Assembly (NCBI RefSeq): GCF_029227855.1
Contig: NZ_CP074356.1
Origin: Escherichia coli
GTDB lineage: Bacteria > Pseudomonadota > Gammaproteobacteria > Enterobacterales > Enterobacteriaceae
DNA: 64,000 nucleotides
Reading direction: 5' to 3' (one strand)
Shown: positions 21,701 to 27,700 of the stretch, in pieces
Layout: every line of letters begins with the position of its first letter
Position numbering within the stretch: the stretch's first letter is position 1
Program-made: the position numbers

Positions 21701-24700
21701 CTGCCCGTGGCACTGTAGCCGTATTCCCGCGTCTGTCGCGGGCCGCTGATGCGCACAAGGTCGCCGTTGTCATTCCACCCGTAGTCACGGTCATACACCA
21801 GGCTGTTCAGGTGCTGGCTCTGTAACTGGCCTGCAGGGGTGTATGTGCTGGTCAGTTCGTATGCGGCATTACTGCCTGCCATGCTGCCAAAGCTGCGCAC
21901 CGTTTCTCTGTGCAGGCGGTCGCGCGCGTACTCCAGCAGCGGCGTGTCGCCCAGCTTCATGCCCGCCAGATAACCGCTACCGTAGGTCAGCCACTCCACC
22001 GGCGGCAGGCTGTCCGGCGTGACGCGGTTTGCCAGCCCCTGTTCGTTGTATGCCTGTTTCGTCTCATGCTGCCACAGCAGTTCCCCCGTCTCCGGGTTCT
22101 TCACCGTCTGGTGCTCACTGGTCAGACGGCCTTTATCGTCATAGCCGTAGTGGACCGCCACACGGTGGCCTTCGCTCAGGTGGCTGATTTCTCTCAGCCA
22201 GCCGTGGCCATCATACTGCCACTGCTCTGCCGGTTCGCCGTTCACCGTGCGGTGAGTGAGGCGGTCCGATTCGTCGTAGTGCCAGAGGGTGACAAGCCCC
22301 TCATCTTCACTCTGCGTGAGTTTTCCGGTCAGGTCATAATGATAACGTTGCGTCCGCCCGTCAAAGCCGCTCTGCTGTACCAGCCGGTCCAGTGCGTCGT
22401 AACGGAAGGCGCTGTCACTGCCGTTCTCGTTGGTCAGCGTGGCGACACGTCCTGCCGCGTCATACTCCATACTGCGCGTCAGCCCGCCCTGCGTGGTGCT
22501 GACCGCTTTTCCCCACGCATCGTACTGTGTCTCGCTCCGGTTGCCGCCCGGGGTGATAACGGCAGTCAGGTCGCCTGCGGCGTTGTACTCATACTGCGTT
22601 TCACGGCCCTGTGCGTCTTTCACCGAGGTTAACCGGCCACGGTTGTCATAGTGGCGGTAAAGGCTGATGCCTTCCTCGCGGTGGACCGCCGTCATCTGGC
22701 CGAAGCGGTCATACTCATAGCGGGTCTGGTAGCCCGAGCAGTCGGTGAACGCCAGCAACTGACCGTAGCGGCTCCAGGTCATCTGCCGGGTGCTGCCCGT
22801 CGCATCTGTTGTCGTGGCCGGTAATTCACTGTGCGGATTATCATAAGCATACCGGATGACGTCCCCACTGCGCGATGTCTCCGATACCAGCCTGTCCCGC
22901 TCATCATACGCCCGGCGGCTCTCCAGCCCGTCCGGGTACACCACCGCCGTCACCAGGTTCCCGTCGTTATAGTAAAATTTCGTCTCCCGCCCGTCCGGCG
23001 TGGTGATGTCCGTGATGTCGCCTGACACCACATTCAGACCGTACTCTGTCCGCCGTCCCGCCGCGTCCGTCTGCGCCGTAAGCCGCCCCACCGGGTCATA
23101 CCCGCTGCGCGTGACGCTGCCGTCCGCCAGTTCTTTTTTCACCACCCGCTTCAGCCCGGCCCCGCCTTCTGTATGCAGCACCTCACGCCGGTTCAGGCTG
23201 TCCGTGACGGTGATGCGGTCCTGCTCATACTGGTAGCGGTAACTCAGGCCTGCCGGGTTCAGCTGCTCCACCACCCGCCCCGCATCGTCGTAGCGGTAGC
23301 GCATCTCCGGCCTTCCCGCGTAACGGTGCGCCACCATCCGGCCCGGGTGCTGCGCGTCATACGTGAAAGCGCGCACCTGCGTATTGCTGCGGTCATATAC
23401 CGCCAGCAGTTCACCGGCTTCCGTATACGTGTACCGCACCAGTGGCGCACCGGGCAGGCTCTCCGGGTATGCCGGGTCGTGCATCAGCCACACCGCCGAA
23501 AGACGGATGCCCCTGTCGGGGCCGTATTCGGTACCGGGCAGTGTGTCGGGGAACGCTGAGGCTGAAAGAGGGCGGGGGGTGTCAGGGGAAAATAAGGAAG
23601 CGGTGTGCTGTTTACGGGCCTCTTCCGCCCGCTGCGCCTGCGTGGTCAGCACCAGACGGAACTCCCGCCCGGCACCGTCCGTCACGCCGGTGATTTCCCC
23701 GGCCAGGTCACCGGCGGCCTCACGCCGGTACGTCAGCGTCTGCCCGAAGCGGTCCGCCAGCCCGGTAAGCACCCGGTACGGCGGCAGCGGCGCTGGCAGT
23801 ACGTCCTCAGTGCCCGGCACCCGCTCTGACCACCCCAGTATCCACCACGGTCCCTGTGCGCTGTTGGTCGCCAGGTAAAGATGCGGGCTTAACCGGATAT
23901 CCGGCGGCAGCGACGCCCACAGCCGTGCCAGCGTGTGGCCGTCCGGCTGCGCTGCCTTACCACCGCGAACCAGCCACATTGACTCGCTGCGGCTGTACAC
24001 CGCCCCCCCCGGCAGCAGCGGCTCAAAGTGAATGCTCCGTCCGCCGTTGTCGTTGAGTACCAGTGCATCATCGCGTATCTGTAAGCGGATATCAGAAGGC
24101 GCTTTCCAGCCGGGGCCAAAAATCCCCACCGGCGCAGGCGTCTTCGTCCGGTAGCTGCTGTAGGTGCGGGAGAGAATGAACGGCAGCGGGCCGGGCAGCG
24201 CAAGGTCCGTCTCGCCGGGCAGCACCTTCGCCCCCAGCAGCGGATTTACCGGGTTGCCCGAAGTCATCCTGCCCGGACACACCGAGCACGCCACGCCGGT
24301 GGGCGCGCCAATTCTTACACCTGCCGAACCCTGGACAATGGGACCGCCATACTGAGTCATATCTCCCTGACGCGCCGCTGGTTTTCCGCTCATATAAAGT
24401 GCCCTTTTAGTTATTGTTCATATTCCTGTGTTAGCAACAAAAAAATAAAATGACACACAAGACCAGCTAATGTATTTATATATTTTTCACATAAACTTAT
24501 TTGTTCTCAATCAACAACAACTGTTATTACAGGTCACTTTCAATATTTTATTAAACTAACATTTTTAGCACAGATGAATTCATCATCAACAAATTCACTA
24601 TATGGATAATATCCATTCAACGCATATGGTTTATGATTTTATTAGTCTGAGTTATTTTTGTAGGGCTATATTTAAAATTATTAAACTCCACCGATTCAGA

Positions 24701-27700
24701 TTAATATCAGCAATAGAAAGATAGGAAATCACCAATTCAATAACATCATCAATGAAACATATTGTAGAATTAATTTAAACAAGGCGTTCCATTCAACCAG
24801 AACGCCCCTTATTTACTCTCATCACCCCGCAAACTGCCTGAACAGCGCCTTACCCTTAACCAGCCGCGCGCCCAGCCAGCCGCCGAAAAGCGACAGCAGC
24901 AGTGCACCGCTGCACGGCAGCACAATCCACAATCGCCAGTCTGGCTCCCACGGGAAATCAAACACTTTCGCCTGCAACACTGCCAGCGCCGTTTCCGCAC
25001 CAATTGCAGCCACCAGGCCAGAAACAAACCCGAGCATGGCGAACTCACACCACAACGTGGTACGCAGCAGTTTTTTCCCCGCACCGAGTGTGCGCCACAC
25101 CACCAGCTCCTGATGACGCTGACGCATTCCCACCTGCACCTGTGCCAGCAACAGCAACATACCGCAGGCGGTGACCAGCACCACCATCACCTCCAGCGCC
25201 CGACTTACCTGCTCCAGCACCTGACCGACCTGTTTTAAAATCGCGCCAATGTCTAACAGGCTAATGGTCGGGAACTGGCGGTTGAGTTGCGTCAACATGC
25301 CGTTGCCATTCTCCCAGCGGAAACTGGTAAGCCAGCTCTGCGGTTGCCCGTCTAATGCCCCTTCAGGGAAAATAAAATAGAAATTAGGCCGCAGACTTTC
25401 CCAGTCCACTTTGCGCAGGCTGGTCACTTTAGCGCGGAACTCCTGGGTATCGCCCATAAAAGTCACAGTATCGCCGAGGGCAACGTTTAAGCGTTTCGCC
25501 AGCCCCTCTTCCATCGACACTTCATCGGCTTTTGGCGGCCAGTTACCGGCGACAATCGGATTATGATCGGGCCGCGTATTTTGCCAGGTAAGATTGAGTT
25601 CGCGGTTAAGCGCCTCATCTTCATTACCTTCTGTCGGCTTATCGTTAATCGCCGTCAGCCGCGCCCGCACCACCGGATAAAACGATTCCGGGACTATCTG
25701 ATGTTCCGCGAGGAACGCTTTTAGCGGTTCTACCTGTTCTGTGGCGATGTTAATTAAAAAGTAGTTCGGGCTTTCTGGAGGTAGCTGCTGCTGCCAGCGG
25801 TCGAGCAGATCGCCACGCAGCACCAGCAGCAGTGCCAACAGCATAAAGGAGAGCGAAAATGCCGAAAGCTGGCTTAACGTTGACCACGGCTGACGTAACA
25901 GGCGGCTAACCGCCAGGCGCAGAGGCAGCGATTTCAGCGTCATGCGGCGAAGTACATTCAGCAGCATCCAGCCCAGCACACCGCACAGCAAAGCCAGTAC
26001 TACCGCGCCCGCCAGCACCGCCCAAAGCAGCATGCTGCCACCCATTAATCCGGCGAGCAGCAGCACAACCACCACACTGACAATCGGCAGATAAAACTTC
26101 AGCGGCCAGACGTTCGCTACCACATCATTACGTAATACGCGTAAAGGCTGCGTTGCCAGCAACAAGCGGTATGGTCGTAGCCCCACCAGCAGCGAGATAA
26201 CCGTCATGGTGCCCAGCGCCCATAGCCACGGCCAGAGGCTGGCTGGCGGTAGTGCAGCAGGCAGAACGGGCTTGAGCAGCACCATCAACACGTTTTCGAA
26301 CAACAGGCCTATCGCCCCACCGGTAACGGCTGAAAGCGTCAGCACCATCAACCACTGACCGACGATTAGCTTACGCAGTTGCGCTCGCCCTGCCCCCAGC
26401 GTTTTGAGGATCGCCACCAGATCGTAGCGACTGCGACAGTAATGATTCATCGCCACCGCCACCGCTGCCACTGCCAGCAGCAAGGTCAGAAGCGCCGAAA
26501 GCAGCAGGAACTGTTGCGAGCGTTCCATCGAGCGCCCCAGCGCGCCTTCGTCCTGTTCCAGACCGTACCAGCGTTGTTCGGGTTTAAGCTGGGGTAACAA
26601 CCATTTCTCATAGCCGTCGAGCTGGTTCTCGTTGCCGCCGAATTTATAGCGCCAGGTGACCCGACTTCCCGGCTGCACGGCTCCGGTTTTATCGACATCC
26701 GCCAGATTCATCATCAGACGCGGAGCCATCTGGAAGGGGTTAAAACCGGAATCCGGTTCCTGAATCACTTCTCCGGCAATCCGCAAGGTGGCATCACCCA
26801 CGTCGATGGTGTCGCCTGTTTTCAGGTTAAGCAGTGCCATCAGGCGTGGGGCCAGCAATACGCTGCCCGCCTGCGGTTTCAGGCCAGGGGGATTGGTTTG
26901 CAGATCGCCATACATCGGATAGATATCATCCACCGCTTTGACGTTCGCCAGCTGCGGTGTGTCGCCTGCAAATGTCATGGTGGCGAAAGTCAGCTGCTTG
27001 CCGACTTTCAGGCCGCGCTTTTGCGCTTCCTCCAGCCACGCTTGCGGCACTTCGCGCGAACTGCGCAACGCCCGATCGCCCGCCATAAACTCCCGGCTTT
27101 GCTGGCTTAAGCCCTTCTCCATGCGATCGCTGATATTGCCCAGCGCCAGCACGCAGGCCACCGCCAGGCTTAGCGCCAGCCAGACAATTAATAGCGACGG
27201 CGAGCGCCATTCGCGCCAGAACCAACGTGCAATCATGCTTCCTCCTGCAACTGCCCGTTCACCAGCCGTAAGCAGCGGTCGCAGCGTGCCGCCAGTTGCA
27301 GGTCGTGGGTCACCATAATCAACGTGGTGCCATGCTCACGGTTGAGGGAAAACAGCAAGTCGGCAATTTTATCGCCCGTCTGGCGGTCAAGGTTGCCGGT
27401 GGGTTCGTCGGCAAACAGCACATCAGGTCGACCATTAAAGGCTCGCGCCAGCGCCACTCGTTGCTGTTCGCCGCCGGAAAGCTGTGCCGGAAGATGATCA
27501 AGACGTTTACCCAGCCCTAACTGTTCGAGCAACGCTTTCGCCCCGTTACGACTTTCCGCGCTACTCTCACCGCGCAGCAGCGCCGTAAGCTCGACGTTTT
27601 CCAGCGCGTTAAGGGTAGGAATTAACATAAATGACTGAAAAACAAAACCTACGTGCTTCGCGCGCAACTTTGCCCGCGCTTCTTCGTCCATATTATGTAG

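Follow-up and report, generated by a model that had tools for sequence, protein, structure and literature searches.

The AT-rich ybbP-rhsD intergenic region of Escherichia coli, probable silenced leader of a horizontally acquired RhsD island

Introduction

Rhs elements were reportedly described by Hill and co-workers as composites, in which a G+C-rich core is followed by an AT-rich tip and a small downstream ORF. In Salmonella, the full-length rhs gene is reported to be untranscribed and its SPI-6 T6SS island to be silenced by H-NS (PMC7043789). A separate line of work has catalogued promoter islands in E. coli K-12, where open complexes and oligonucleotides of 9-14 nt are formed and full transcripts are nearly absent (PMC3661553). 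The K-12 spacer between ybbP and rhsD is one of the 78 islands in Table 1 of that paper (Panyukov & Ozoline 2013), where it appears as entry 522099_304, and the genes beside it are called foreign by three predictors. Genomic SELEX found an H-NS site in the same ybbP>rhsD spacer of K-12, as well as a peak for the sigma-70 holoenzyme, which binds the spacer in vitro (Shimada 2014). A more recent study of promoter islands (eLife 2024) concluded that only some of them are repressed by H-NS.

As a promoter island bound by H-NS and RNA polymerase but barely transcribed, this spacer is already known from the K-12 catalogue. Here we examine its counterpart in a 64,000-nucleotide stretch of another E. 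coli genome (NCBI RefSeq assembly GCF_029227855.1, contig NZ_CP074356.1), hereafter the window. We describe the anatomy and composition of the leader, its membership in the RhsD island and the absence from it of an ORF or a structured RNA. New here are the island junctions and the prevalence of the leader, about 53% of genomes, the finding that its density of promoter-like sites is matched by its composition, the depletion of strong sites, and a low diversity that it has in common with the pseudogenes of the island. In our opinion, the gap most probably serves as promoter region and 5' leader to a horizontally acquired RhsD island that H-NS keeps nearly silent.

Locus organization and composition

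The original prediction placed a long, strongly AT-rich non-coding region at positions 24394-24821, and these coordinates are exact: the 428-bp gap is flanked by ORFs at 20182-24393 and 24822-27236, both called on the minus strand. The names rhsD and ybbP are correct for the locus. The ORF at 24822-27236 is ybbP, a core-genome ABC permease gene with its TGA stop at 24824-24822. The ORF at 20182-24393 is an rhsD-type RHS core gene encoding 1403 amino acids, with a 17-residue N-terminal motif, 13 RHS_repeat domains, DUF6531 and RHS domains, and a strain-specific, AT-rich toxin tip. Over residues 1-1261 the protein shares 93% identity with RhsD of K-12; similarity ends at DPLGL, residue 1261, and there is none in the differing C-terminal tip beyond. 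The DNA of the Rhs core is G+C-rich (about 62-69%), and that of the tip, below position 20600, has 30-36% G+C. An ORF of 163 amino acids lies downstream and overlaps the rhsD-type gene. The locus therefore has the makeup of an Rhs element, namely an RHS-repeat core ending in PxxxxDPxGL, a divergent AT-rich tip and a small downstream ORF. Judging from the sequence, AAGGG at 24402-24406 (minus strand) resembles a Shine-Dalgarno element, with a spacing of 8 nt to the ATG of rhsD (24393-24391).

The gap, which on the minus strand forms the leader of the RhsD island, has a G+C content of 28.3%, compared with 54.8% across the window. This is the lowest value for any 428-bp stretch in the window; just 0.013% of all such stretches are this low, and the minimum starts at 24390. 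A G+C content well under the genome average is typical of targets of xenogeneic silencing. TpA steps have a frequency of 0.108 in the gap and 0.043 in the window. The gap is also unusually long, as had been proposed, ranking second among about 35 inter-gene gaps in the window as annotated in strain 1190, which is identical; the longest, 486 bp, lies upstream of a YadA-like gene. Its sequence is 100% identical to that of E. coli 1190 and, over the full length, 98.6% identical to K-12 522831-523260.

At the ybbP end of the gap, an intrinsic-terminator-like hairpin occupies 24771-24808 on the minus strand, with a stem of GGGGCGTTCTGG-loop-GGAACGCCTT and a weak T-rich tail, GTTTAAATTA. It lies 13 nt past the ybbP stop, its stem has 11 pairs (5 of them G-C; -16.1 kcal/mol, z = -3.45), and the tail GUUUAAAUUA that follows it is a weak, interrupted U-tract. 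An intrinsic (Rho-independent) terminator is recognized by a G+C-rich hairpin with a U-tract behind it, placed right after a stop codon, and the element has this layout. The gap contains no other terminator on either strand.

The leader as the edge of an exchanged island

The leader is the ybbP-proximal end of the full RhsD island (18712-24819, about 6.1 kb), which occupies the slot that runs from the mnmH stop codon to that of ybbP, two convergent genes. Homology to alternative haplotypes stops 3 nt past the ybbP stop and right past the mnmH stop. In other strains the slot holds alternative cargo, and the modules found there, Rhs-PAAR, an Hcp-effector or a dinQ-like toxin, have junctions that lie no more than about 3 nt from either stop. 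As a speculative reading, this replacement of whole cargos might reflect a specific exchange mechanism. Among 5426 complete E. coli genomes, 2906 (~53%) carry the leader, while 5417 have the 3' end of ybbP. The ybbP hairpin belongs to the island and not to the core genome, and other haplotypes have different hairpins at this place. The gap is the edge of the horizontally exchanged RhsD island, not native spacer DNA.

Diversity across the island is 0-1.4%, compared with 2-7.6% at flanking synonymous sites; the whole island is simply young, younger than its flanks. The leader is 5-13 times less variable than the adjacent four-fold sites of ybbP (p = 4e-9 for A/T sites and 7e-4 for G/C sites). 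Constraint on the leader as a sign of function was considered and rejected, since the ylbG pseudogene shows the same invariance, as do the island's distal non-coding parts. Variable columns make up 1.9-2.6% of the leader and 1.2-1.4% of the island pseudogenes, and since low diversity is common to these pseudogenes it is no sign of a hidden gene.

No homologue of the leader was found upstream of K-12 rhsA, rhsB or rhsC, elsewhere in the 5426 E. coli genomes at the sensitivity of blastn, or at 14 loci from other genera, picked by their Rhs N-terminal codon pattern. The leaders of rhsA and rhsC alone share a proximal 115 bp at 93% identity.

Promoter-like sites and transcription starts

Promoter-like sites are dense in the gap, with 49 found where 8.6 are expected at the window-wide density, 5.7 times the window average as scored with our own PWM, not with the PlatProm program used by Panyukov & Ozoline 2013. 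This number matches base composition, as dinucleotide shuffles of the gap yield 46.8 +/- 7.4 sites. The region thus has the length of at least 300 bp and the very high density of predicted starts that define promoter islands, at a density that is the composition-matched expectation. Since composition fully explains the density, the idea of the island as an evolved structure is weakened. Strong pairs are rarer than in the shuffles (3 versus 11.1 +/- 3.3), which hints at some selection on the leader sequence.

The original prediction held that the gap probably carries the rhs promoter, which is plausible on weak evidence. Binding of the holoenzyme in vitro speaks for it, as does the sole published rhsD transcription start, at -45 from the ATG, which comes from one 454 read with the -10 element 'TTTATTTT' (Mendoza-Vargas 2009, PMC2760140). 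Against it, the K-12 survey of Kim 2012 has no start anywhere in the gap, and PWM scans of the rhsD sense strand found only mediocre -35/-10 pairs. The best of these by score, TTGAGA-17-AAAAAT (24482-24510, minus strand; 9/12 matches, 10.4 bits), implies a start near 24475, and we found no experimental support for it. The promoter predicted by Shimada 2014, TTAATA-17-TGTAAT (24526-24554, minus strand), has a mediocre 6.0 bits and an implied start near 24519. The pair that fits the start at -45 (~24438), TTAGCT-17-TATTTT (24438-24470, minus strand), has 6.2 bits and is outscored by the pairs at 24510/24487 and 24589/24566, at neither of which a start was found. With four candidate pairs and one supporting read, the rhsD promoter is not pinned down. 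Active internal starts are listed for K-12 near the rhsD toxin tip and in the orphan fragment (Kim 2012).

H-NS binding

We mapped the promoter island 522099_304 (U00096.2 coordinates; PMC3661553, Table 1) to positions 24474-24777 by way of the end of ybbP at 522054 (Kim 2012 table) and the K-12 alignment. Proximity to horizontally acquired genes, another trait of promoter islands, is found here as well. In PMC3661553, the entry is assigned to H-NS class 'A', bound in all of the ChIP studies compiled. Together with the SELEX site of Shimada 2014, this ChIP compilation gives good support, for the 98.6%-identical K-12 sequence, to the proposal that the gap is a silencing target. The high-affinity H-NS motif TCGATAAATT is not enriched in the gap beyond what composition gives (1 site with at most 2 mismatches, versus 1.5 in shuffles). 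The gap sequence is absent from the supplements of the eLife 2024 study, and our literature search returned no report of rhsD derepression or expression in an hns mutant.

Search for small genes and structured RNA

The gap was thought to have no convincing ORF and perhaps to hide a small RNA; the former holds and the latter finds no support. The longest stop-to-stop frame has 51 codons. Of the ORFs that begin with an ATG, the two longest, both on the plus strand, encode 40 and 29 amino acids and have no Pfam match. No feature is annotated in the gap in K-12 or in about 110 RefSeq genomes listed. An Rfam search over 24000-25200 at E <= 10 gave chance matches only, none better than E = 1. Folding of the whole gap gave z = -0.11 and -0.41 for the two strands and z = +0.37 for the 5' UTR; including sliding 100-nt windows, z ranged from -1.9 to +0.4, and the lowest value is that of the ybbP terminator. 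Repeats are limited to two-copy matches of 10-14 nt, at chance level, and two perfect palindromes lie at 24602-24616 and 24573-24584. A small-RNA gene would be expected to have a promoter and a terminator of its own and a stable or conserved structure; with no Rfam match, no second terminator and folding z-scores near zero, the gap does not fit this pattern.

Discussion

Published K-12 data provide the binding of H-NS and RNA polymerase and the near-zero transcription on which our reading draws; from these we infer that H-NS is the cause of the silence at the rhsD locus and that the same silencing operates in the strain studied here. The island-borne hairpin would end ybbP transcription, and the roughly 300 bp of 28%-G+C DNA beyond it would supply dozens of weak -10/-35-like sites and also a preferred surface for H-NS binding and nucleation. 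One or more weak sigma-70 promoters would follow, the only mapped start lying ~45 nt ahead of the ATG, and then the Shine-Dalgarno-like AAGGG and the start codon. RNA polymerase could bind the leader while H-NS filaments prevent productive initiation, and competition among the overlapping weak sites possibly adds to the block. As a consequence of this block, the PAAR-Rhs toxin gene would remain silent cargo, awaiting some anti-silencing signal.

The silence could instead arise from the crowding itself, with overlapping weak promoter-like sites trapping RNA polymerase in complexes that abort or compete, in place of any action of H-NS. A model of excessive promoters as silencers has been proposed (PMC7054387), and it agrees with the open complexes, short oligonucleotides and few full transcripts of promoter islands (PMC3661553) and with the excess of weak sites over the window-wide expectation. 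We nevertheless judge it quite unlikely, as the number of sites is what base composition predicts, with no sign of selection for it, and mutagenesis of 25 islands gave no evidence for repression by extra -10/-35 boxes (eLife 2024). Alternatively, the gap may be a functionally neutral filler of the island, to which H-NS binds incidentally for its A+T content while control of rhsD expression lies elsewhere, such as in internal promoters for the toxin tip. The leader is indeed no more conserved than the pseudogenes, has no homologue upstream of other rhs genes in K-12, the E. coli pan-genome or the 14 loci of other genera, and contains none of the Kim 2012 starts, whose active internal ones map close to the toxin tip and within the orphan fragment. 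Yet a full-length PAAR-Rhs protein requires a promoter upstream of the ATG, the ybbP terminator separates rhsD from the one other promoter that lies upstream, the spacer is selected in vitro by RNA polymerase holoenzyme (Shimada 2014), and the rarity of strong pairs hints at selection; a mere filler is therefore unlikely.

A concealed small RNA or small protein gene is very improbable. The length of the gap, the plus-strand ORFs of 40 and 29 codons and the palindromes, as possible regulatory sites, are what can be said for it, and these stand against ORFs without a Pfam match, Rfam matches and folding at chance level, a sole terminator that belongs to ybbP, the lack of annotation in any genome listed and no reported start except the single read at -45. 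Conceivably, the leader is not passive AT-rich DNA but a module that evolved for silencing and moves along with the RhsD island, combining its own terminator as insulation from ybbP, a surface on which H-NS nucleates and a promoter region that has lost its strong pairs to selection. We consider this a long shot; if true, a toxin gene could be inserted between two convergent core genes without cost, to be switched on only by a dedicated anti-silencer.

If, as we favor, the gap is an H-NS-silenced leader and promoter region, it offers a clean single-copy example of a quiet, toxin-carrying accessory island and a test case for H-NS versus promoter crowding as the silencer. The exact junctions at two stop codons and the three alternative cargos of this one slot should be of modest use for work on Rhs and T6SS effector exchange. 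The younger age of the island and the depletion of strong promoter matches are further modest by-products, none of them surprising.

Compared with the leaders of K-12 rhsA, rhsB and rhsC, the rhsD leader likewise precedes the identical 17-residue start, is AT-enriched (theirs have 35-37% G+C) and carries a short motif of the ATATAAATA type some 80-110 nt before the ATG, whereas theirs are half as long (202-242 bp), less AT-rich and without real homology to it. With xenogeneic silencing, as known from the data sets of Navarre, Lucchini, Oshima and Grainger, the locus has in common an accessory toxin island whose 5' end is low in G+C, H-NS occupancy as reported for K-12, and the lack of any full-length rhs transcript seen under laboratory conditions; it differs in that resemblance to an H-NS substrate is confined to the leader and the toxin tip, the core being G+C-rich. 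Promoter islands (Shavkunov 2009; PMC3661553) are, like the K-12 orthologue of the gap, AT-rich, dense in promoter-like sites, bound by H-NS, near genes predicted to be foreign and almost untranscribed, and here the two are of the same kind, as this orthologue of the exact interval is itself an entry in the catalogue.

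Identity and composition of the spacer

The 428 bp between ybbP and an rhsD-type gene (window 24394-24821, both genes on the minus strand) are the rhsD leader and promoter region, a documented H-NS target in K-12 with weak and poorly mapped promoter activity. The interval has already been described for K-12. We add here that it forms one end of an exchangeable island whose junctions lie at two stop codons, that its richness in promoter-like sites is purely compositional, and that it looks conserved because the island is young.

The upstream ORF (24822-27236, minus strand) encodes the 804 aa YbbP and the downstream ORF (20182-24393, minus strand) a protein of 1403 aa. 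E. coli strain 1190 is 100% identical over the gap, with flanks annotated as ybbP and "RHS element core protein", and the ybbP-rhsD spacer of K-12 MG1655 (522831-523260, no annotated feature) is 98.6% identical. The downstream protein contains 13 RHS repeats, DUF6531 and RHS domains, and matches K-12 RhsD at 93% identity across residues 1-1261, with similarity lost completely past the DPLGL motif. Because of these matches, the name "upstream of rhsD" in the original prediction holds for the locus and core type, the toxin tip being strain-specific. That tip lies in a second AT-rich block (19895-20550, 31-36% G+C), which also takes in the overlapping ORF downstream; this ORF of 163 aa is presumably the immunity gene, and Pfam returned no match for it.

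The spacer is indeed unusually long, AT-rich and devoid of convincing ORFs. Its G+C content is 28.3% versus 54.8% for the window, the 64-kb minimum for 428-bp G+C begins at 24390, and by the strain 1190 annotation only one gap in the window is longer. No open frame exceeds 51 codons, ATG ORFs of 40 and 29 aa had no Pfam match, and none of the listed RefSeq genomes has an annotated feature here. The AT-rich stretch has a TpA frequency of 0.108 (window 0.043) and nine A or T tracts that are 4 nt or longer. Another long AT-rich gap (33697-34256; 486 bp, about 30% G+C), upstream of a YadA-like adhesin gene absent from K-12 at this position, probably represents a further accessory-DNA leader of the H-NS type. 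Relative to K-12, one more accessory insertion lies between cueR and ybaT (~40030-62300): a 20.8-kb siiEA/BapA-type giant adhesin gene together with its type I secretion genes (HlyD-family adaptor, permease/ATPase, TolC-family protein).

An exchangeable island between mnmH and ybbP

Among 5426 complete E. coli genomes the leader is present in 2906, and the ybbP 3' end in 5417. In leader-negative genomes, homology on the ybbP side ends 3 nt past the ybbP stop, and on the other side directly past the stop codon of mnmH, which is convergent with ybbP. This places the RhsD island at ~18712-24819, with the leader as its ybbP-proximal end. The interval between the two stop codons (18708-24824) is a cargo-swapping slot with junctions within ~3 nt of both stops. 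Other genomes fill it with about 0.7 kb carrying a dinQ-like type I toxin and a REP-like hairpin, with an Hcp-effector fusion (a 2-kb "tssD") and a DUF2931 gene, or with an IS1-truncated remnant, and each haplotype has its own hairpin after ybbP. No second, diverged leader copy was found in E. coli, even at blastn sensitivity, and the leader was absent from all 14 loci recovered by scanning about 100,000 species-representative genomes for the Rhs N-terminal codon pattern.

Only 11 leader columns (2.6%) vary among seven diverse genomes, compared with 14-22% of four-fold degenerate sites in adjacent ybbP, a difference that persists within A/T (p = 4e-9) and G/C sites (p = 7e-4). Taken alone, this low diversity would suggest strong constraint on the leader, a reading we rejected as the ylbG pseudogene and distal non-coding parts of the island are equally invariant (1.2-1.4% variable, 0-1.2% pairwise). 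Low diversity therefore belongs to the whole island, whose common ancestor is more recent than that of the flanks, and is no evidence for a hidden functional element. Third positions of mnmH differ by 0.5-5.5%. Between distant O157, O111, K-12 and UPEC genomes, the non-coding and pseudogene parts (18709-19709, 24394-24821) differ by 0-1.4%, against 2-7.6% at flanking synonymous sites (ybbP, mnmH); the spread, or sweep, of the island appears to postdate the split of the lineages. The 5' 1.5 kb of rhsD (22894-24393) is far more variable than the flanks (11.5% variable columns, 5-14% third-position divergence, first and second codon positions also affected). This variation clusters 750-1250 nt from the ATG and has the look of mosaic exchange between rhs paralogues.

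Promoter-like sites, H-NS and transcription

On the sense (minus) strand, a terminator-like hairpin (24808-24781; 11 pairs, -16.1 kcal/mol, z = -3.45, weak T-rich tail) starts 13 nt beyond the ybbP stop codon (TGA, 24824-24822) and is the terminator-like end for ybbP. About 300 bp of AT-rich DNA follow, and AAGGG (24406-24402), read from the sequence, precedes the rhsD ATG (24393). The idea that the gap could hide a small RNA found no support: Rfam gave nothing better than E = 1, the only terminator-like hairpin is that of ybbP, and the whole gap folds with z = -0.11 on the sense and -0.41 on the antisense strand, the putative 5' UTR with z = +0.37. The leader also contains two perfect palindromes, ATGGATA-A-TATCCAT (7-1-7, 24602-24616) and GATGAATTCATC (6-6, 24573-24584), together mildly unlikely by chance on a rough estimate; neither could be assigned to a transcription factor.

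A -35/-10 scoring scan (PWM) built on approximate classical frequencies, a rough tool, counted 49 weak promoter-like sites over the two strands, where the window-wide density would give 8.6. Dinucleotide-preserving shuffles of the gap gave 46.8 +/- 7.4, so A+T richness accounts for this density. Three sites reached 7 bits or more, versus 11.1 +/- 3.3 in shuffles (0.6% of shuffles as low), and a stricter consensus scan agreed (1 versus 1.8 +/- 1.2). If anything, good promoters are avoided, which is suggestive only, several thresholds having been tried; the deficit may stem from selection acting against strong but spurious promoters in AT-rich DNA of foreign origin.

The predicted nucleoid-protein target is documented for the K-12 orthologue. 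Panyukov and Ozoline (2013; PMC3661553) list "ybbP(+)/rhsD(+) 522099_304", about 24474-24777 in the window, as one of 78 promoter islands; three predictors call its adjoining genes foreign, it overlaps a GIST genomic island, and it is assigned to H-NS class "A", which stands for binding in every ChIP study compiled. In general, RNA polymerase is described as binding promoter islands, forming open complexes on them and making 9-14-nt oligonucleotides, and full transcripts as almost absent (PMC3661553).

That the gap carries the rhs promoter is plausible. In Shimada et al. (2014; PMC3946193, Table 3), the ybbP>rhsD spacer contains a genomic-SELEX site for the sigma-70 holoenzyme and is also flagged for an H-NS SELEX site; the promoter predicted there is TTAATA-17-TGTAAT (-35 24554, -10 24531; PWM 6.0 bits). 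Mendoza-Vargas et al. (2009; PMC2760140) place an rhsD start at -45 (about 24438) from one 454 read, with -10 "TTTATTTT", corresponding to candidate TTAGCT-17-TATTTT (24470, 24447; 6.2 bits). For the minus-strand candidates TTGAGA-17-AAAAAT (24510, 24487; 10.4 bits) and TTGATG-17-AAAAAT (24589, 24566; 9.1 bits) support was not found. The table of Kim et al. (2012; PMC3415461) skips from 519490 to 526492 (U00096.2 coordinates) and thus places no start in the gap and attributes none to rhsD.

Comparison with other rhs loci

The K-12 rhsA, rhsB and rhsC leaders are shorter than that of rhsD (202-242 bp, 35-37% G+C) and unrelated to it except for a 17-nt AT motif. The rhsA and rhsC leaders (L008, L007) are 93% identical in the 115 bp proximal to the genes. 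All that they have in common with the rhsB and rhsD leaders is a short ATATAAATA-like motif, located 80-110 nt upstream of the ATG, that may serve as a shared -10 region.

Kim et al. (2012) list starts in the K-12 equivalents of ~20200-20500 and of the orphan rhs fragment (~10270 and ~11130 of L002, a K-12 sequence): 526492 lies inside the AT-rich rhsD tip upstream of ybbC, and 527354 inside orphan ylbH at a 10-residue protein motif. By that table the toxin/immunity end is transcribed in K-12 and the full-length rhsD gene is not. Both starts resemble the internal P2 rhs promoter of Salmonella. In that genus, too, the full-length rhs gene is not transcribed, and H-NS is reported to silence its T6SS island (PMC7043789).
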